From the IMG/VR virus record IMGVR_UViG_2663762908_000002: a stretch of DNA of 14,084 nucleotides; one strand, given 5' to 3'. This DNA comes from a virus (taxonomy: Duplodnaviria > Heunggongvirae > Uroviricota > Caudoviricetes). The position numbers and the translations under genes were made by a program. Of this stretch, positions 1 to 9,335 are shown piece by piece. Numbering within the stretch: position 1 is the stretch's first letter; every line of letters begins with the position of its first letter. The notes below the pieces were generated by a model. It had not been told where the DNA came from and made no database searches. It saw only the letters and a program-made list of their open reading frames with translations.

Positions 1-1299
1 CTAAAGACGCATCCCCTTCCCTTTGCGATGTAGCATCAAAGAAACCAGAAACGCCACCACGGCCATCAAGGTCACATACCAGAAGAAGGCTGTTTCCATT
101 CCTATTGATTTCAGCGACAACGCTACGTACTCCGCCGAACCACCAAATATAGCATTAGCGACCGCATATGACAGACCAACGCCTAATGCGCGAACCTGTG
201 CCGGGAACATCTCAGCCTTCAGTATTCCACTGATTGATGTATAAAAACTCACTATCAGCAGGGCACACATCACCAGACCAAAAGCGGCATAAGGCGAGGA
301 AACGTTTTGCAATGCTGAGAGAATAGGAACGGTAAAAATGGCTGCCAGCGAACCGAAACATAACATTGAGGTACGGCGACCAATCTTATCCGACAGCGCG
401 CCAATGAGTGGTTGAATAAGCATGAATACAAACAATGCGGCAGTCATAATGCCACTCGCCACGTTGGCATGCATTCCCGCAGTATTTACCAGATACTTCT
501 GCATATAAGTAGTGAAGGTATAGAAACAAAGGGAGCCCGCAGCGGTAAAACCGAGAACCATGATGAATGCACGGCGATTGCGCCATAATCCTTTCAGAGA
601 TCCAGCTTCTTTTAAAGCGCGCGTTTCTTGTTGCGAAGTTTCATCTAACTGACGACGTAACCACAACGCCACAACAGCTAACACAGCTCCTAACGCGAAA
701 GGAATACGCCATCCCCACTCTCTGAGTGCAGCGTCTTCCATGGTGTGTTGTAAAACCACGACAACCAGTAGGGCTAGCAGTTGTCCGCCGATCAACGTCA
801 CATACTGAAATGATGCGTAAAAACCTTTGCGCCCTTCAACGGCAACTTCACTCATATAGGTGGCGCTGGTGCCATATTCTCCGCCAACGGATAATCCCTG
901 AAATAAACGAGCGAGAAGCAATAATGCCGGAGCCCACGTACCTATAGTTTCATAACCTGGGAGGCAGGCGATAACCAGCGATCCGAAACACATCATACAC
1001 ACCGATAACAGCATCGATTTTTTGCGACCATGTTTATCGGCTATGCGGCCAAATAGCCAACCGCCTATTGGGCGCATCAGGAATCCCGCAGCAAAAACAC
1101 CTGCTGTTTGTAGTAGTTGAGTCGTCGTGTTCCCGGAAGGGAAGAAAATGTGGGCGAAGTAGAGTGAACAGAACGAGTAGACATAGAAATCGAACCACTC
1201 GACCAGATTACCTGAAGAGGCCCCCACAATCGCCCAAATGCGGCGACGAGTATCACTACTTGTCAGTTTGCTGTCTGCCGTTACAGTACTTTCAGCCAT
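1..1299 (-). CDS. kgtP: alpha-ketoglutarate:H+ symporter (MFS transporter), 432 aa
   Basis: Translation from the ATG at 1299 ([41 protein letters not shown]...) matches E. coli KgtP as I recall it; AGGAGA Shine-Dalgarno 9 nt upstream; TAG stop at 1-3. The ORF-track start at 1401 adds 34 residues with no RBS and is rejected. Confidence 0.93.
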
Positions 1300-1534
1300 G
1301 CCATTATGTCTCCTGCCGTAATCCGATGCTTTTGTTGGTCGCTTTTGTTTATTTCTTTTGGTAAAGAAAATGTTATACATTTGTTGCGTATCATTATGCA
1401 ACCTTAACCATGAATTTAGTTAGCAGGAAAATGGTTATTGAGGAGCTTAAGGATAAATTTCTGGTAAGGAGGACACGTATGGAAGTAGGCAAGTTGGGGA
1501 AACCGCATCCGTTGCTGAATCTGGCATATGTGGG

Positions 1535-1564
1535 AGTATAAGACGCGCAGCGTCGCATCAGGCA
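1535..1564 (-). repeat. REP (repetitive extragenic palindromic) element, single copy
   Basis: Minus-strand sequence GCCTGATGCGACGCTGCGCGTCTTATAC resembles the E. coli REP consensus; imperfect palindrome. Confidence 0.5.
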
Positions 1565-1577
1565 TTTTTTTCACCAA

Positions 1578-1607
1578 CGCAAAAAGGCCATCCTGACGGA
1601 TGGCCTT
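1578..1607 (-). terminator. Rho-independent terminator at the end of an rrn operon
   Basis: Hairpin GGCCATCC / GGATGGCC (1586-1593 with 1598-1605, loop TGAC) followed on the minus strand by a T run (plus-strand A run 1581-1585); the same hairpin sequence is known from rrn operon terminators. Confidence 0.8.
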
Positions 1608-1619
1608 TCGCTTGATTTG

Positions 1620-1680
1620 ATGCCTGGCAGTTCCCTACTCTCGCATGGGGAGACCCCACACTACCATCGGCGCTACGGCG
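1620..1680 (-). rRNA. rrf: 5S ribosomal RNA, 3' 61 nt only (truncated by scaffold gap)
   Basis: Reverse complement of 1620-1680 reads ...CGCCGUAGCGCCGAUGGUAGUGUGGGGUCUCCCCAUGCGAGAGUAGGGAACUGCCAGGCAU, the canonical 3' half of E. coli 5S rRNA; interrupted by the N run. Confidence 0.9.
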
Positions 1681-1690
1681 NNNNNNNNNN
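1681..1690. other. assembly gap (10 N), contig junction
   Basis: Run of 10 n characters; unrelated sequence context on either side. Confidence 0.99.
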
Positions 1691-2740
1691 TTAGGCCAGC
1701 ACACCAATTGCCAGCGCGTGATCGATAAATCGAAAAATCAGCTCCAGTTGGGAGCCATACTTCTCTTCAAATGCCACGGTATCCGTATGCAGTTCGTCGT
1801 GATGCTTTCTGCATAAAGGCAACACAAAAAGATCATGTGCTTTGGTTCCCATTCCGCCCTGCCCGTGACCAATCAGATGATGCGGATCGTCGGCTGGCAT
1901 ACCGCAGCAAGCACACGGCTGTGTCTTCACCCAGCGAGTGTATTTCTCCTTAACCCAGCGGCGACGTTTAGGTAGCTTCATGAAAGATTCCGGAGACTCA
2001 GGATCAACGGTGATGCTTACCACCGTCCTTTCCTGTAGTGGGTGTTGTTCCTGGTGGGCGTGAGGCAACAGTGCAAGATTTTTTGTGCGCTGTTTCAATA
2101 TGCTGGTGGCGGTCTGCTCTCCCGGTACGATGTCGCTTTCGCGGTACATTGAGCGGATTTTTTCCGCTGGTAATCCCAGCGAGCGACGTAATACCGCTTC
2201 AGGTAGCGCATCCGCCACCTGATTTCGGACCGCCCACCAGGATAATTCAGCCAGAGATAATTCACGCTCCTGCGTACCGCTTATTGCGTGACCGATGACG
2301 TCAATCATCCATGCTGACAGGTTTTGATGAGCAAGTTGCTCGAGTGATTCGGATGTCTGGTCACGCAGCTGGTTGTCGCAGTGCCAGCACAACACCATTG
2401 CGCCGGTACCATAACGGTGAATGACGGTTTCACTGTGGTGATAATCGCCGTGTGGCCACTGGCAGGATTTAATATGGCGCAACAGCCAGTCAGACAATGC
2501 ACCAGCACCACCAGCAGCACGAATCACCCGTGCGTTACTGAAAAACGGCAGCAATGTTTTGTCTTCCACCAGCGGCTGGCGAACGGCAGGAACGACCCCG
2601 GACGGCAGATTACGCATGCTTTTCGGTTCCGGCTCCACCAGTACCCGGGTATTGTGGAATACCGGCATGGATTCACGGCCCGGCTTAACGATCACCACCC
2701 CGAGTTCCGGTACCAGAACAGGTCGAAGTAATACCCGCAC
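1691..2740 (-). CDS. YdfU-like prophage protein with a DUF968-type Cys/His-rich C-terminal region, 349 aa
   Basis: ORF with GTG start at 2740 preceded by GGAGG 4 nt upstream, immediately after the upstream gene stop. The C-terminal Cys/His cluster, the length and the position next to hok match my recollection of Qin YdfU. TAA stop is the first triplet after the gap. Confidence 0.7.
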   Translation of the reverse strand: MRVLLRPVLVPELGVVIVKPGRESMPVFHNTRVLVEPEPKSMRNLPSGVVPAVRQPLVEDKTLLPFFSNARVIRAAGGAGALSDWLLRHIKSCQWPHGDYHHSETVIHRYGTGAMVLCWHCDNQLRDQTSESLEQLAHQNLSAWMIDVIGHAISGTQERELSLAELSWWAVRNQVADALPEAVLRRSLGLPAEKIRSMYRESDIVPGEQTATSILKQRTKNLALLPHAHQEQHPLQERTVVSITVDPESPESFMKLPKRRRWVKEKYTRWVKTQPCACCGMPADDPHHLIGHGQGGMGTKAHDLFVLPLCRKHHDELHTDTVAFEEKYGSQLELIFRFIDHALAIGVLA

Positions 2741-2741
2741 G

Positions 2742-3020
2742 TTACCTCCAGATCCGTTGCTGGTATGTGCGGGATGAACGCGGTGGGCGTTCGGAGTAAG
2801 GGAGTCTGACTGAGATTATCCAGTGACGGTAGTCGAGGCTAAGAGCTTTCTTAACCTCGTATCCGCGCCTGCGGTAACACTGAATTATCCATTCCGCCTG
2901 CTCTTCAGTGCATGGAGGATGCTGGAACCAGTCTGATTTGAATGCGTGAAAACGCCGTCCGCACCTACTGGCAAAGACGGCAGAATCATTAGAATTGTGT
3001 AATTTGGTATCGTGCGCCAT
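2742..3020 (-). CDS. small prophage protein at the position of Rem in Qin, 92 aa from ATG 3020 (start uncertain)
   Basis: ORF between hok and the ydfU-like gene. The longer ORF-track version starts with GTG at 3149, has no SD and would span the terminator hairpin at 3090-3119, so the internal ATG at 3020 is preferred. Identity with Rem not verified. Confidence 0.4.
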   Translation of the reverse strand: MAHDTKLHNSNDSAVFASRCGRRFHAFKSDWFQHPPCTEEQAEWIIQCYRRRGYEVKKALSLDYRHWIISVRLPYSERPPRSSRTYQQRIWR

Positions 3021-3089
3021 CGGTTGTCTCTGCTGGCGCAGCAGGTGCCAGTTGTTCAGGCTGGCGTGCGAATTGTAAACCAGAATGCC

Positions 3090-3119
3090 AGGAAAAAACA
3101 AAACCCGCCGAAGCGGGTT
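3090..3119 (-). terminator. Rho-independent terminator downstream of hok
   Basis: Perfect 7-bp stem AACCCGC / GCGGGTT (3102-3108 with 3113-3119, 4-nt loop) followed on the minus strand by UUGUUUUUU (plus 3092-3101). Confidence 0.6.
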
Positions 3120-3187
3120 ACGTGCGGGTGCGTTGAGGATGCCTGACACATCAGAGGTGGCGAGGGATTTCTCCCCCGCCAGGTCTC

Positions 3188-3343
3188 TTACTCCTCAGGT
3201 TCGTAAGCTGTGAAGACAGCGACCTCCGTCTGGCCGGTTCGGATTCGTACCTCGCAGAGGTCTTTCCTCGTTACCAGTGCCGTCACTATGACGGTTAAAC
3301 AGATGACGATCAGGGCGATTAACATCGCCTTTTGCTGCTTCAT
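3188..3343 (-). CDS. hokD: Hok-family type I toxin, 51 aa (not in ORF track; below size cut-off)
   Basis: Hand translation of the minus strand gives MKQQKAMLIALIVICLTVIVTALVTRKDLCEVRIRTGQTEVAVFTAYEPEE, which matches HokD/RelF as I recall it; AAGGAGA SD upstream; TAA stop. Confidence 0.88.
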   Translation of the reverse strand: MKQQKAMLIALIVICLTVIVTALVTRKDLCEVRIRTGQTEVAVFTAYEPEE

Positions 3344-3399
3344 AGCCTGCTTCTCCTTGACCTTTCGGTCCGTAAGAGGCTAATCTCTATGTGTCGCAT
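3340..3399 (-). CDS. 19-codon upstream ORF ending in an ATGA overlap with the hok start (possible mok-like coupling ORF)
   Basis: Minus-strand ATG at 3399, reading MRHIEISLLRTERSRRSRL, with TGA stop overlapping the hok ATG. No SD checked; speculative. Confidence 0.25.
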   Translation of the reverse strand: MRHIEISLLRTERSRRSRL

Positions 3400-3601
3400 A
3401 GATATGGCCTCAGATTAATGTTAAGCGTCTTGCAGGACGCGTAATGTTAACTGGGGCTTTTCTCTATCTGCCTTTTGGTGTTCATGCCTGAGACAGATAG
3501 CCTCAAGCACCCGCAGTCATTCTACTTAACTAAGATTTCCCCGCAAACCGTTTTTGTCCGGCACAGTAAATATCCAACTAAACCAATGGCGTTCGCTGTA
3601 T

Positions 3602-3781
3602 TTACCGCCAGTATTCAATGCACATGACCGCCATGAACACCCCTAAAAAAAGGGCATTTATATATCCAAATATTAATATCAAAACATCAACTTTTTCCAT
3701 ATACCTTGCTGTGAAGATGATGGGCATACATGATACGAACAACCAGAACGCAACAAACAAAAACTGCAATGCGTTTTTCAT
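3602..3781 (-). CDS. small hydrophobic protein, 59 aa, two predicted transmembrane segments
   Basis: ATG at 3781 preceded by AGGAGG 5 nt upstream; translation MKNALQFLFVAFWLFVSCMPIIFTARYMEKVDVLILIFGYINALFLGVFMAVMCIEYWR; AT-rich gene and flanks. The ORF-track start at 3820 lacks an RBS. Confidence 0.5.
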   Translation of the reverse strand: MKNALQFLFVAFWLFVSCMPIIFTARYMEKVDVLILIFGYINALFLGVFMAVMCIEYWR

Positions 3782-4010
3782 TATTCCTCCTACAATCAAT
3801 GTGCAATTACATTTAAACACACCTCAATTTGGCCGGACATATAAATATCTAAACCAGAAAAAATCACTTACATAGCGTTACAAACTCTTTAGTCTAAATA
3901 TTCATCGTAAAACATTCCCCATACTTATCAGCCCGTTCTGCGCCAGGTAGCTCATTGCCTTATCTGGGAATCTGTAATCAGGTTTCCGGATGCTGGTGGA
4001 TTTTCGCGTT

Positions 4011-4268
4011 TTAGTTGTTCATAAAAGTGCACAGCTTTAACCAGTTCTTCTGATGTAACCGGGACTGGCGGGGCAGTGAATAAGGCCTGAATTTCATAGT
4101 TCGGCCTGTCGTTACAATCCTCTTTTTTCGGTACATATTTCCAGTCACCAGACCACTACTTCCCCTGAAAGTCCGTAACGCCTTTTTTTTCACGTAGCGA
4201 TATCGCCATGCCACTGTTTTTGCTTGCCCCGCCGTTTCATGCCCTTCCTGATAATTAACCTCGCTCAT
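4011..4268 (-). CDS. hypothetical basic protein, 85 aa (doubtful)
   Basis: ATG overlaps the stop of the upstream gene (ATGA), but the ORF is rich in rare Arg codons, low in complexity and spans an A8 homopolymer. Confidence 0.25.
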   Translation of the reverse strand: MSEVNYQEGHETAGQAKTVAWRYRYVKKKALRTFRGSSGLVTGNMYRKKRIVTTGRTMKFRPYSLPRQSRLHQKNWLKLCTFMNN

Positions 4269-4441
4269 TCATCGCCCCACTCATCACAATATGCTTCGAC
4301 CGGAGTTTTTCCTGCTTCATAATCATCACGCCATGCTTCAGCATCAGCAGCACTGCCACCACGTAACTCTGCATAGTCCATTAACAGTTCATGCCATTCT
4401 TCAAAACTGACGTTGTATTTAGTTGAACCAAAATCAGCCAT
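4265..4441 (-). CDS. small acidic protein, 58 aa (not in ORF track)
   Basis: Hand translation MADFGSTKYNVSFEEWHELLMDYAELRGGSAADAEAWRDDYEAGKTPVEAYCDEWGDE; GGAAG SD 7 nt upstream; ATG lies 5 nt before the stop of the preceding ORF (ATGGCTGA). Confidence 0.5.
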   Translation of the reverse strand: MADFGSTKYNVSFEEWHELLMDYAELRGGSAADAEAWRDDYEAGKTPVEAYCDEWGDE

Positions 4442-4616
4442 TTTGTTCTTCCTCTTCGTCTTTTATTTCGTGATATGAGTAATTGCAGTAGTTAAAGAAA
4501 ATATCTTTTGCTTCGTCATGTATTTCATCAGGCGTCGCATCATCATCCACTTCGAATTCATCCTCGAAATCTCCACCGGCTATTCCCGTTTCAATAATTA
4601 TTTTAAACTTTCGCAT
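4434..4616 (-). CDS. small highly acidic protein, 60 aa
   Basis: ORF MRKFKIIIETGIAGGDFEDEFEVDDDATPDEIHDEAKDIFFNYCNYSYHEIKDEEEEQNG; 20 Asp/Glu against 5 Lys/Arg; AGGAGG upstream, separated from the ATG by a hairpin. Confidence 0.55.
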   Translation of the reverse strand: MRKFKIIIETGIAGGDFEDEFEVDDDATPDEIHDEAKDIFFNYCNYSYHEIKDEEEEQNG

Positions 4617-4709
4617 TTAACTACCGCCCTTTCGGGCGGCCTCCTGATGTTCTGAGGGTGCAGAAATCCCTCCGGTTAAGGATTAAATTTTTAACAGAGC
4701 TAAATTTAA

Positions 4710-5066
4710 TTATTCAGTTCTGGATTTTGTCGCCCTGCGTATCCGCGCTTTCGCGTTACGCTCAATCTGAATTAGCTTTTCTATATTTTTTCGCCTTTCC
4801 CGCTCCTCCTGACGCAAGAGCCTTACATCATCTGCCAGTCTGGTTTCTCTTTTCGCCACAGAGAGCATCCAGTCAAATGGCTCCACAACTGCACCGCAGA
4901 TTTTACAGCGGACCTGACGCTCTTTTTCGTCAACCCGGACAGAGGCGTGATGACAATATGGTCTTTCCGATGGCTCATAAAGAAAATTAACCTGATTACG
5001 AGGGTCATCCTCTTTTACCGGAAATAAAACGATATTGCTTAACTCATCCTCTGGTTTTATTTCCAT
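4710..5066 (-). CDS. hypothetical protein, 118 aa, with a Cys/His cluster (CHH...CxxC) and a charged, possibly coiled-coil C-terminus
   Basis: ATG at 5066 with AGGAGAGGAG immediately upstream; the ORF-track start at 5123 has no RBS. Confidence 0.6.
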   Translation of the reverse strand: MEIKPEDELSNIVLFPVKEDDPRNQVNFLYEPSERPYCHHASVRVDEKERQVRCKICGAVVEPFDWMLSVAKRETRLADDVRLLRQEERERRKNIEKLIQIERNAKARIRRATKSRTE

Positions 5067-5123
5067 GCTCCTCTCCTTTGATGCGAATGCCAGCGGTAAT
5101 TGAAGCCTGATAGCTAATTTCAC

Positions 5124-5546
5124 TCACAGTACCGCCTCCTGAAAATTACCCTGATAGAAAGCCAGTACACGCTGCATAGCTTCACTCTTCCGGCACTCGC
5201 GACAGATTATGTTTAGGCGACTGTCGTAGCGACGTATTTCTCCGTCAGGTGATGACCAGATAAGGTCCGGATCAACCACAGCAGGTTTCTTCACCTTTGC
5301 CCTCGAGAGTTTTTTGCGGGCGTTTTGCCAGTCCTTACGCGCCTGTTCAGAGGGGAATAACCCGTAGCCGGAGTTGTATACATCGCCGCTGGCAACCAGC
5401 TCTCTTGCGAGAACGCTCATCAGATATCTTGTCGCACCTGTCTTGACTTCCAGTTGCCGTAACGTCTCACGCCCACTCTGGCGTACGAGTTCAACAACCT
5501 GCCCTTTAATTTTTTCTCGCTCTTCTTGTGTAAAAACTTTTGCCAC
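5124..5546 (-). CDS. hypothetical prophage protein, 140 aa
   Basis: GTG start at 5546 with AGGAGGG 3 nt upstream; sits directly downstream of the replication initiator gene. Confidence 0.55.
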   Translation of the reverse strand: MAKVFTQEEREKIKGQVVELVRQSGRETLRQLEVKTGATRYLMSVLARELVASGDVYNSGYGLFPSEQARKDWQNARKKLSRAKVKKPAVVDPDLIWSSPDGEIRRYDSRLNIICRECRKSEAMQRVLAFYQGNFQEAVL

Positions 5547-5586
5547 AAGCCCTCCTGAAAATTACCTCATGACCAGAAATCAACAC

Positions 5587-6657
5587 TTACCCCCTGAAGC
5601 CCGGTGGAATTTCGGTATCCGGTTCAGAAATATGATTCACACAACGCTGGTTGTTCGTGCCGCTTACCGGGAGCAACCAGGGGTTCTCAAAATTCCGGTC
5701 CGGTCCAAAAAACGTCGTCGCTCGCTGAACAAATTCCGTTCCCGTTTTCCCGGTAGCCGCCAAGTATCTTGCGTAACGCCTCACGCCATCCAGCATGGCC
5801 TCTGGTGGCACCCCCTCGCGTAATCTGGCCTTCCAGGCACTGAAAGCGGATTTCTTCGGGTTTGCTCCGGCACGCAACGGGTACTCCCGCCAGACCTGTT
5901 CGAACACATCCGGATAATCCACTCGTCCCACAGACAGCCCGGTGTTTTCCGGGACTACCCGATCGGCTTCCCGCTGAATGGCGGAATCGGCTTCAGGCTG
6001 CTGCAGTTGGTGTGATTGCTCCGGCCTTGGGGTCATCACCTGCTGCACAGCGCCCGAATCGGCTTTCAGCGCATACGCTGAATCGGCTTCCGGTGTCGTG
6101 CCTGCTGGCTGACCAGGATTGACGGTCTGAACATCCCCTGCCTGGTTCGTGGCGTTTTTTACGCCATGGACCATAGTGTTTTGATCTTCTTGATCTGTAT
6201 CTTTATCTGTATCTTTATCTGTCGTGACTCGTCGTGACATGTGCGTGACATTTCGTGACGCGCCGTGACAATCGCCATTTTGTTCCCGCTTTCTTTCCCT
6301 CTCTCGCTGCGCCCTCTTGCGCTCTGCCGGAGATTTTGCGGTTTGCGAAATATTGCCGTTGTCCTCTTTCAGCACCTGGCGTTTTTCCCATCCAGTGATT
6401 AAATCACCATCAAGTACCCGCCCCTGCATCGTCTGCAAAATTGAATCAATTACCTCTTCTGTCACGTCGAGCGCACTTGCCAAATCTTCTGTCGTGACAT
6501 CAATGTGACCTCGCGTGACATTTCGTGACGCGCTCACCAGGAGGTGGATATACACTGCCATCACTGTTGCAATTGGCTGCCCTGACACCCTGGCAATTGT
6601 TCGCCACTTAGGGTCATTTGGCATGTCATGCCATAATCTGAGCCAGGCGTTAGCCAT
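5587..6657 (-). CDS. phage replication initiation protein (O-like), 356 aa
   Basis: ATG at 6657 with GAGG 5 nt upstream. The N-terminus (MANAWLRLWHDMPNDPKWRTIARVSGQPIATV...) and a C-terminal motif block resemble phage replication-initiator families as I recall them; internal iteron-like repeats support an embedded origin. Confidence 0.7.
   Translation of the reverse strand: MANAWLRLWHDMPNDPKWRTIARVSGQPIATVMAVYIHLLVSASRNVTRGHIDVTTEDLASALDVTEEVIDSILQTMQGRVLDGDLITGWEKRQVLKEDNGNISQTAKSPAERKRAQRERERKREQNGDCHGASRNVTHMSRRVTTDKDTDKDTDQEDQNTMVHGVKNATNQAGDVQTVNPGQPAGTTPEADSAYALKADSGAVQQVMTPRPEQSHQLQQPEADSAIQREADRVVPENTGLSVGRVDYPDVFEQVWREYPLRAGANPKKSAFSAWKARLREGVPPEAMLDGVRRYARYLAATGKTGTEFVQRATTFFGPDRNFENPWLLPVSGTNNQRCVNHISEPDTEIPPGFRG
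6193..6222. repeat. tandem repeat, 12-bp unit ATCTGTATCTTT, 2.5 copies, AT-rich, next to iterons
   Basis: Direct reading; two GATC sites lie immediately upstream (6183-6186, 6192-6195). Confidence 0.8.
6223..6269. repeat. iteron-like array: 5 copies of CGTGAC at 10-11 bp spacing (putative phage origin)
   Basis: CGTGAC at 6223, 6233, 6244, 6254 and 6264; helical periodicity; inside the replication initiator gene. Confidence 0.55.
6494..6533. repeat. second iteron-like array: 4 copies of GTGAC at 10-11 bp spacing
   Basis: GTGAC at 6494, 6505, 6515 and 6525; a 21-nt exact copy (6513-6533) of 6243-6263. Confidence 0.5.
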
Positions 6658-8403: not shown

Positions 8404-8559
8404 ATGGATACTATCGATCTTGGCAACAACGAATCTCTGGTGTACGGCGTGTTTCCAAACCAGGACGGCACCTTCACCGCAATGACGTATACCAAAAGCA
8501 AAACGTTTAAAACCGAAAATGGTGCCCGTCGCTGGCTGGAAAGAAACTCAGGTGAGTGA
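8404..8559 (+). CDS. ydfA: Qin-type small protein YdfA, 51 aa
   Basis: ATG at 8404 with GAGGT SD; size and order match ydfA-ydfB-ydfC-dicF-dicB in K-12 Qin. The ORF-track start at 8323 lacks an RBS. Confidence 0.75.
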   Translation: MDTIDLGNNESLVYGVFPNQDGTFTAMTYTKSKTFKTENGARRWLERNSGE

Positions 8560-8560
8560 T

Positions 8561-8689
8561 ATGGATTTTGACACAATCATGGAAAAGGCTTACGAAGAAT
8601 ACTTCGAAGGCCTTGCCGAAGGCGAAGAAGCTCACAGCTTCAACGAATTTAAACAGGCGCTTTCCAGTTCGGCAAAATCTAACGGCTGA
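8561..8689 (+). CDS. ydfB: Qin-type small protein YdfB, 42 aa (not in ORF track)
   Basis: Hand translation MDFDTIMEKAYEEYFEGLAEGEEAHSFNEFKQALSSSAKSNG; starts 2 nt after the ydfA stop; acidic. Confidence 0.75.
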   Translation: MDFDTIMEKAYEEYFEGLAEGEEAHSFNEFKQALSSSAKSNG

Positions 8690-9277: not shown

Positions 9278-9335
9278 TTTCTGGTGACGTTTGGCGGTAT
9301 CAGTTTTACTCCGTGACTGCTCTGCCGCCCTTTTT
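9278..9335 (+). ncRNA. dicF: DicF small RNA (Hfq-dependent cell-division inhibitor, acts on ftsZ mRNA)
   Basis: Sequence TTTCTGGTGACGTTTGGCGGTATCAGTTTTACTCCGTGACTGCTCTGCCGCCCTTTTT matches DicF as I recall it, including the intrinsic terminator hairpin and U tail; lies between ydfC and dicB as in Qin. Ends approximate. Confidence 0.8.

Follow-up and report, generated by a model that had tools for sequence, protein, structure and literature searches.

Gene pair and its products

The IMG/VR virus record IMGVR_UViG_2663762908_000002 (Caudoviricetes), a stretch of 14,084 nucleotides that is called the window here, carries on its minus strand two consecutive short open reading frames (ORFs) that encode small, strongly acidic proteins. 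The first, orf60 (positions 4434 to 4616), encodes 60 amino acids (aa), and the second, orf58 (4265 to 4441), encodes 58 aa. Both start with ATG, and both are found in the ORF list as well as in RefSeq, as WP_001224662.1 (“DUF7167 family protein”) and WP_000753060.1 (“hypothetical protein”), respectively. By Pfam and PHROG, orf60 falls in DUF7167 and phrog_1997, and by PHROG, orf58 falls in phrog_519. Our analysis indicates that these are genuine genes from two unrelated phage protein families that are joined as one cassette in Escherichia coli lambdoid prophages, and their products may be stoichiometric inhibitors of a host protein that handles DNA or acts in defense.

Both proteins stand out by their composition. 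There are 20 Asp and Glu residues against 5 Lys and Arg in orf60 (isoelectric point [pI] of 4.05, net charge of approximately −15) and 16 against 4 in orf58 (pI of 4.05, net charge of approximately −12), which also contains 3 Trp and 4 Tyr residues. A ranking of all 120 ORFs of the window with at least 40 aa placed orf60 first (acidic fraction of 0.33) and orf58 second (0.28), with a median of 0.055. An earlier sequence-only reading of this DNA had described two minus-strand ORFs of these lengths with an overlap of 8 nucleotides, the same acidic and basic counts, and a second product rich in Trp and Tyr, all of which is exact. The strong acidity that it emphasized is confirmed by the ranking and recurs across both families.

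Comparison with homologues at 45 to 79% aa identity gave saturated synonymous sites and nonsynonymous distances (dN) of 0.1 to 0.5 for both proteins. Since this degree of identity is kept despite the saturation of synonymous sites, orf60 and orf58 are genuine genes under purifying selection. An origin as a duplicated pair was ruled out, given that alignment of the two family profiles with hhalign returned an E value of 0.85, and this indicates that the families are not homologous to each other.

Translation signals and leader hairpin

The two genes share the sequence ATGGCTGA (4434 to 4441, minus strand), an overlap of 8 nucleotides that contains the orf58 start codon and the orf60 stop codon and that points to tight translational coupling. 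An identical junction was observed in 80 of 80 IMG/VR loci; these were retrieved with the DUF7167 profile and are all near-identical E. coli copies, and so they inform on the architecture of the cassette only. The overlap is not obligatory, since in one E. coli variant (L114) orf60 stops at a TAA one nucleotide before the orf58 ATG.

The sequence-only reading had given each gene its own Shine-Dalgarno sequence, which holds for orf58 and fails in its simple form for orf60. The Shine-Dalgarno sequence of orf58, GAGGA (4450 to 4454, minus strand), lies 8 nucleotides 5′ of the ATG, within the codons for the acidic tail of orf60. The sole good candidate for orf60 is AGGAG (4641 to 4645), which in the linear sequence is 27 nucleotides 5′ of the ATG, across a hairpin. 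The complete leader (4617 to 4645, minus strand) reads AGGAG, the hairpin GCCGCCC-GAAA-GGGCGGU (7 bp, with a GNRA loop), AGUUAA, and AUG, and its computed fold has an energy of −23.9 kcal/mol (z score of −2.3). The Shine-Dalgarno sequence would be properly spaced only when the 7-bp hairpin forms, and the leader may thus be a structure-bridged ribosome-binding site, for which T4 genes 38 and 25 are precedents. The hairpin motif occurs once in the window and accompanies orf60 in approximately 70 of the 80 IMG/VR loci, whichever gene stands upstream, and its variants preserve G-U pairs.

A scan of the coding strand over positions 3400 to 5700 found no promoter or intrinsic terminator on the minus strand, and so none of the pair's own.

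Family of orf60

The match of orf60 to the Pfam family DUF7167 (PF23768) scored 55.1 bits (E value of 7.9e-15; gathering cutoff of 24.4), with residues 2 to 53 aligned to profile positions 1 to 60 of 60, and the match to phrog_1997 had an E value of 9e-31. The protein is a full-length member that agrees with the others in length, in the acidic tail, and in the family motif IET...AGG...FEV-DDAT-EEI-EAKD-F-NYCNY. A profile search of 5.8 billion clusters recovered 158 DUF7167 proteins (clustered at 90% identity). Their median net charge is −13, with a range of −18 to −10 (n = 64), and the acidic positions are grouped in three places, namely the loop between hairpin and helix, one side of the helix, and the tail. 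The N-terminal MRKFK keeps its basic character. The AlphaFold2 (AF2) model of orf60 (mean predicted local distance difference test score [pLDDT] of 86.9) shows a β-hairpin and a helix followed by a disordered acidic C-terminal tail.

DUF7167 is found without orf58 in Klebsiella lambdoid phages, Klebsiella Guernseyvirinae, Enterococcus Herelleviridae, a Pseudomonas phage, and Phapecoctavirus. Its gene overlaps an exonuclease gene in the Klebsiella Guernseyvirinae and in the Enterococcus Herelleviridae, which are two unrelated lytic lineages, and in temperate phages it lies a few genes away from GamL, DUF3799, RecT, Erf, SSB, or Dam.

Family of orf58

Residues 1 to 58 of orf58 align to positions 76 to 137 of the 143-position profile of phrog_519 (E value of 4.5e-23), which makes it a member of this family; no Pfam family was matched. 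The family motif is F-EW..L...A...GGSAADA-AWR-DYE-GKTP..A..DEWG, and the core WH..L..A..GGSAADA-AWR-DYE-GKTP..DEWG is common to orf58 and to proteins of Ackermannviridae, Morganella, and Enterobacter phages. The hypothetical proteins of phrog_519 include CBA120 orf183 and Menlow gp173, and the Kuttervirus and Taipeivirus members share the motif. When 1.84 billion representatives (50%-identity clusters) were searched exhaustively with HMMER, 74 relatives had E values of at most 0.001. The median net charge of the family is −10, with a range of −15 to +1 (n = 48), and taken with the values for DUF7167, this indicates that strong negative charge is a conserved trait of both families. The AF2 model of orf58 (pLDDT of 87.6) is a three-helix bundle. 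Nearly every member of either family is a stand-alone protein of 50 to 65 aa.

The relatives of orf58 also occur in varied company. Enterobacter prophages have an orf58 homologue of 79% identity, without DUF7167, immediately after an Ead_Ea22 gene; its location is the pL region in some and the nin region in others. More distant relatives are solitary in Ackermannviridae (CBA120 orf183 and Menlow), a Koutsourovirus, a Jilinvirus, a Morganella phage, and Autographiviridae. Some come after a Dam gene and an Rv2179c-like exonuclease gene, and others adjoin a metallophosphoesterase gene, stand near an exonuclease gene, or are located two genes from RdgC. On two metagenomic contigs, a distant member lies directly upstream of SocA_Panacea (antitoxin-type) genes (L107, 3297 to 3473; L108, 635 to 811), an adjacency that would be compatible with a counterdefense neighborhood.

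Two candidate links of orf58 to other proteins were rejected. The 127-aa protein P0210 is not a Rosetta-stone fusion of the pair, given that its orf58 part follows an unrelated N terminus and not DUF7167. The label DUF5419, carried by the record of the Morganella phage Mecenats66, found no Pfam match at E values up to 10 with the Morganella protein, CBA120 orf183, or orf58.

Both sequences are catalogued already, as DUF7167/phrog_1997 and phrog_519. The description of the pair as the likeliest place in the window for something undescribed stands for function, since both families are uncharacterized, and does not stand for sequence, which is present in about one-third of complete E. coli genomes.

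A mobile cassette of E. coli lambdoid prophages

Of 5426 complete E. coli genomes, 1750 carry at least 80% of the length of the 352-bp pair, in as many as 4 copies each, and orf58 is directly behind orf60 in every one of the 80 IMG/VR loci. The segment that moves extends from 4247 to 4647 (minus strand) and comprises the leader, orf60, orf58, and the first 18 nucleotides of the next gene. By blastn it is 98% identical to a block in the Stx phage ArgO145 (L002), where the copy (gp15/gp14/gp13) is found in the pL region among Ead/Ea22-like genes, which is a different operon. The cassette is bounded by the leader hairpin at one end and, at the other, by a point 18 nucleotides into the following gene, and a recombination breakpoint falls inside the leader hairpin in 3 IMG/VR loci.

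The families are unrelated and each occurs alone in many other phages, which argues that the pair is a cassette and not an obligate two-part system. The pairing is a feature of E. coli lambdoid prophages and not general to either family, and at this locus the earlier view of a coupled pair holds, with tight coupling. Phages and prophages, temperate and strictly lytic, are the only carriers of either family, and among them are lambdoid phages, Ackermannviridae, Autographiviridae, Guernseyvirinae, Herelleviridae, and Phapecoctavirus; the evidence on gene neighborhoods comes from about a dozen independent lineages.

Copies in decaying prophages were also recovered. The pair is present at 89% nucleotide identity in prophage remnants flanked by insertion sequences in E. 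coli ET490 (L112) and N1286 (L113), at positions 1501 to 1852, and both genes are interrupted there by in-frame stop codons. The stop codons argue for a role in the phage cycle rather than a host-domesticated one, and they indicate that the host does not maintain the genes once the prophage decays.

Two further observations concern the surroundings of the cassette. The approximately 95 nucleotides between the upstream Zn-ribbon gene and orf60 (4622 to 4717) also match a second, separate place in ArgO145 (L002, 5001 to 5091) with 92.7% identity. This suggests that the intergenic stretch is a recurring linker where lambdoid modules recombine. ArgO145 also encodes a third small, acidic, Trp-rich protein, the 70-aa gp16 (L002, 6101 to 6313), whose gene is an optional insertion that separates the Zn-ribbon gene from orf60 in only some cassette copies. 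It was rejected as a paralogue of orf58 because the profile comparison was not significant (E value of 0.53).

Comparison with known proteins

Searches of Pfam, NCBIfam, PADLOC, and the PDB sequences with single sequences and profiles returned nothing for orf60 or orf58 beyond DUF7167 and the PHROGs. With E values up to 0.1 allowed, no PADLOC model matched the pair, orf85, the Zn-ribbon protein, or the neighboring ORFs. Motif searches in the supplements of an accessory-gene screen were negative for both families. In the searchable literature, DUF7167, DUF5419, phrog_1997, WP_001224662.1, and WP_000753060.1 drew no mention, and phrog_519 drew a single one. That mention is a machine-learning “anti-CRISPR” prediction by PaCRISPR for phrog_519 in Kuttervirus (PMC9409062).

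The likeness to Ocr (T7 gp0.3) and ArdA that had been suggested is confined to acidic composition and to origin from phages or mobile elements. The Pfam families of Ocr and ArdA were not matched at E values up to 0.1 by either protein, nor up to 10 by orf58, and comparison of the AF2 models with solved structures gave no fold match to any of these, Ocr, ArdA, Gam, and gp5.9 included. The suggestion of an Ocr- or ArdA-like protein thus finds no support in sequence or fold, and the same applies to every solved DNA mimic.

In their general features, orf60 and orf58 do fit what is seen in DNA mimics, being small, with 33% and 28% Asp and Glu, respectively, and with a low pI (4.05). The RecBCD inhibitors T7 gp5.9 and lambda Gam offer a parallel in being small and very acidic (pI of 4.0 for gp5.9). 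Their genes adjoin phage exonuclease or recombinase genes, a placement that is also seen for DUF7167 in several lineages. The architectures differ, however: gp5.9 is a parallel coiled-coil dimer and Gam is a mainly α-helical dimer, whereas the models have a β-β-α arrangement for orf60 and a three-helix bundle for orf58. The dimeric helical or coiled-coil architecture with which Gam and gp5.9 bind the RecB arm was not found in the models of orf60 and orf58, and there was no sequence or fold similarity to either inhibitor. Small size and high acidity have been described for both gp5.9 and Gam, and DNA mimics as a group are structurally diverse (PMC9836394). With this precedent, the missing fold match does not weigh heavily against the idea of a mimic.

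P22 Arf, whose mechanism is not known, is another small, acidic, stand-alone protein, and its gene belongs to a lambdoid recombination operon (PMC9836394). Arf (PF17585) is a different family from DUF7167, with called Arf genes of 51 aa, and the two stand together in one operon in three loci (L017 to L019).

The pair shares its two accessory hot spots, its gene sizes, and its character of nonessential cargo with the lambda exo-xis ORFs (orf60a, orf61, orf63, and ea8.5) and with NinD, NinE, and NinF. No Pfam exo-xis family was matched, and tblastn gave no match in phage lambda. The sequence-only reading was right in finding no NinD, NinE, or NinF in the pair: neither Pfam nor NCBIfam gives a named family, and no Pfam Nin family was matched by orf60 or orf58, while NinE and NinG were detected elsewhere by the same annotation source.

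Genomic setting

On the minus strand, the genes follow the order cro-like, cII/YdaT-like, O-like replisome organizer, DUF977/Ren-like, Zn-ribbon, orf60, orf58, and orf85, and beyond orf85 come hokD/sok, a rem-like gene, and then a DUF968 (YdfU) gene. The plus strand carries a repressor gene, DicF, an integrase-side gene, and an ORF that matches a RefSeq exonuclease, which is exodeoxyribonuclease VIII in phage 640R1. Rfam identified the hokD toxin ORF with the sok antisense RNA at 3188 to 3512 (minus strand; RF01794, 106.7 bits) and the DicF small RNA at 9279 to 9330 (plus strand; RF00039, 76.7 bits). The presence of both indicates a lambdoid prophage of the Qin/dicB type. The nin position previously proposed for the pair is correct, as it lies downstream of the O-like, DUF977, and Zn-ribbon genes on the strand of the cro/cII operon. 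From this location in a nin-type cargo region, orf60 and orf58 should be expressed as delayed-early genes.

The Zn-ribbon/coiled-coil protein encoded upstream (4710 to 5066, minus strand; 118 aa from ATG; phrog_1621, function not assigned) is the usual upstream neighbor of the pair in both genomic contexts and has distant relatives in Klebsiella, Serratia, Hafnia, and Providencia phages. Its start is ambiguous between a GTG that gives 137 aa (4710 to 5123) and the ATG, with RefSeq and ArgO145 taking the 118-aa form.

Downstream, orf85 (4011 to 4268, minus strand) overlaps orf58 by ATGA and would encode a very basic product (pI of 11, 19 Lys and Arg). Its codons 1 to 7 are the start of the ArgO145 Ead/Ea22-like gene, and the remainder is unrelated. 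In the PGAP annotation, the region 3952 to 4268 is a pseudogene that is frameshifted and contains an internal stop, and tblastn matches to orf85 are split into two pieces in diverged copies; orf85 is probably a degenerate remnant. A role as basic partner or toxin of the acidic pair is unlikely, given this chimeric makeup, the frameshifted pseudogene annotation, and a frame that is not conserved.

Two other regions of the window were noted. The third most acidic ORF (8519 to 8689, plus strand; 56 aa, net charge of −8) sits in the early-left region, where RefSeq has ydfA, ydfB, and ydfC in a related genome. Positions 1 to 1680 are host kgtP and a partial 5S rRNA gene (rrf), at 100% identity, and directly adjoin the DUF968/YdfU gene, after which related prophages have rusA, Q, and lysis genes. 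None of the 5426 complete E. coli genomes covers at least 80% of positions 1 to 3200, which span this junction, in one place. The junction may be an assembly chimera at the rRNA repeat or a rare deletion or rearrangement.

Possible function of orf60 and orf58

The reading that we favor, to which we assign a probability of roughly 0.45 from composition and context, is that orf60 and orf58 are stoichiometric, DNA-mimic-like inhibitors of a host protein of DNA handling or defense. They would be two unrelated, independently mobile accessory genes that became fixed as one cassette in E. coli lambdoid prophages. The pair would be transcribed as part of the long rightward cro-cII-replication operon in the delayed-early phase and translated by tight coupling, each gene yielding a compact, strongly acidic domain of approximately 6.5 kDa, predicted to be a β-hairpin with an amphipathic helix and a polyacidic tail for orf60 and a three-helix bundle for orf58. 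Each protein would then bind stoichiometrically to the basic nucleic-acid-binding surface of a protein of the host or of a rival element and block it, acting by DNA-mimic-like competitive inhibition during lytic growth. The likeliest target would be a nuclease, a DNA-end-processing enzyme, or a defense enzyme. What the analysis shows goes as far as conserved, phage-specific, small and acidic proteins of early regions; we infer the binding to a host protein, the identity of the target, and the use of the acidic surface as the interface. It is doubtful that DUF7167 and phrog_519 go so far as to represent two new, structurally unprecedented families of DNA-mimic or antidefense inhibitors, for which RecBCD/AddAB-type nucleases, restriction enzymes, or another nuclease-based defense would be possible targets.

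The compact folds of the two models, which have no enzyme-like features, and the early or accessory gene context, repeatedly beside enzymes that act on DNA ends, are in line with an inhibitor. Several observations weigh in the opposite direction. The conserved residues of orf58 are mainly core aromatics (W16, L20, W37, Y41, G44, and P47) and form no defined acidic stripe. Any early phage gene is commonly near nuclease or recombinase genes, and direct adjacency to these was found only in a minority of the independent contexts. Delayed-early timing in the nin region is late for shielding DNA against restriction upon entry. GamL is already present in one temperate phage with DUF7167. Neither family appears in the supplements of the 268-protein antidefense catalogue EVADES, searched by motif and accession, and the PDB sequence, NCBIfam, and PADLOC searches yielded no match. 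The antidefense or DNA-mimic proposal of the sequence-only reading thus keeps its footing in composition, context, and conserved charge; no positive evidence for it emerged, and its sole published pointer is the PaCRISPR prediction (PMC9409062).

Other functions would explain part of the same evidence. One that we consider unlikely, though still credible, is that the proteins are accessory subunits or regulators of the replication or recombination machinery of the phage itself, either as an Arf-like factor or as a partner or inhibitor of the adjoining exonuclease, with the acidic surface docking on the enzyme or on SSB. The overlap of DUF7167 with an exonuclease gene in two unrelated lytic lineages, the location of both families within replication and recombination modules, and the precedent of P22 Arf, which is likewise small, acidic, and part of such a module (PMC9836394), all speak for it. 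However, a partner-specific subunit is expected to co-occur with its partner, and the neighboring enzyme changes between lineages, with no adjacent exonuclease or recombinase in the window or in most E. coli copies. It is rather unlikely that the pair belongs with the exo-xis type of modulators, small proteins that bias lysis-lysogeny or induction or perturb the host cell cycle without involving any defense system. Lambda orf60a, orf61, orf63, ea8.5, and ea22 are described as such developmental modulators. An effect of exo-xis genes on lysis versus lysogeny is reported in one study (PMC7093339). The ArgO145 cassette is indeed located in the pL region between Ead/Ea22-like genes and upstream of xis/int, orf58 comes straight after an Ead_Ea22 gene in Enterobacter prophages, and the gene after orf58 in the window begins with Ea22 start codons. 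The families are nevertheless present in the virulent Kuttervirus, Taipeivirus, Koutsourovirus, Kochikohdavirus, and Phapecoctavirus, which make no lysogeny decision, and the lack of a tblastn match in phage lambda also speaks against this type of modulator.

Translational coupling would be explained if an orf60-orf58 heterodimer were the active species, and the genes are contiguous in all 80 IMG/VR loci and in 1750 complete E. coli genomes and relocate between the nin and pL regions as a single unit of 400 bp. All those copies, however, are closely related to one cassette, outside which the two nonhomologous families do not co-occur, and since both proteins are strongly negative, simple electrostatic pairing is disfavored; an obligate two-component complex is accordingly very unlikely. 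That the ORFs arose by chance or are untranslated remnants is extremely improbable. Both are very short and the copies in decayed prophages are pseudogenes, but conservation at the protein level across phage families with saturated synonymous sites, membership in curated Pfam and PHROG families, and the confident AF2 models are at odds with this.

For the present, the gain is a sharper annotation: two independent families, a cassette with defined boundaries, conserved charge, and no link to Ocr or ArdA, which phage biologists will find unsurprising. The families are widespread and cheap to test. If orf60 or orf58 does act as a counterdefense protein or as an inhibitor of a host nuclease, this would provide a function for a Pfam DUF and for a large PHROG family and would enlarge the antidefense toolbox by an inhibitor fold that is small and easy to express. 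It may also help explain differences in host range among E. coli prophages and among lytic phages, some of which, such as Kuttervirus, are often considered for therapy.

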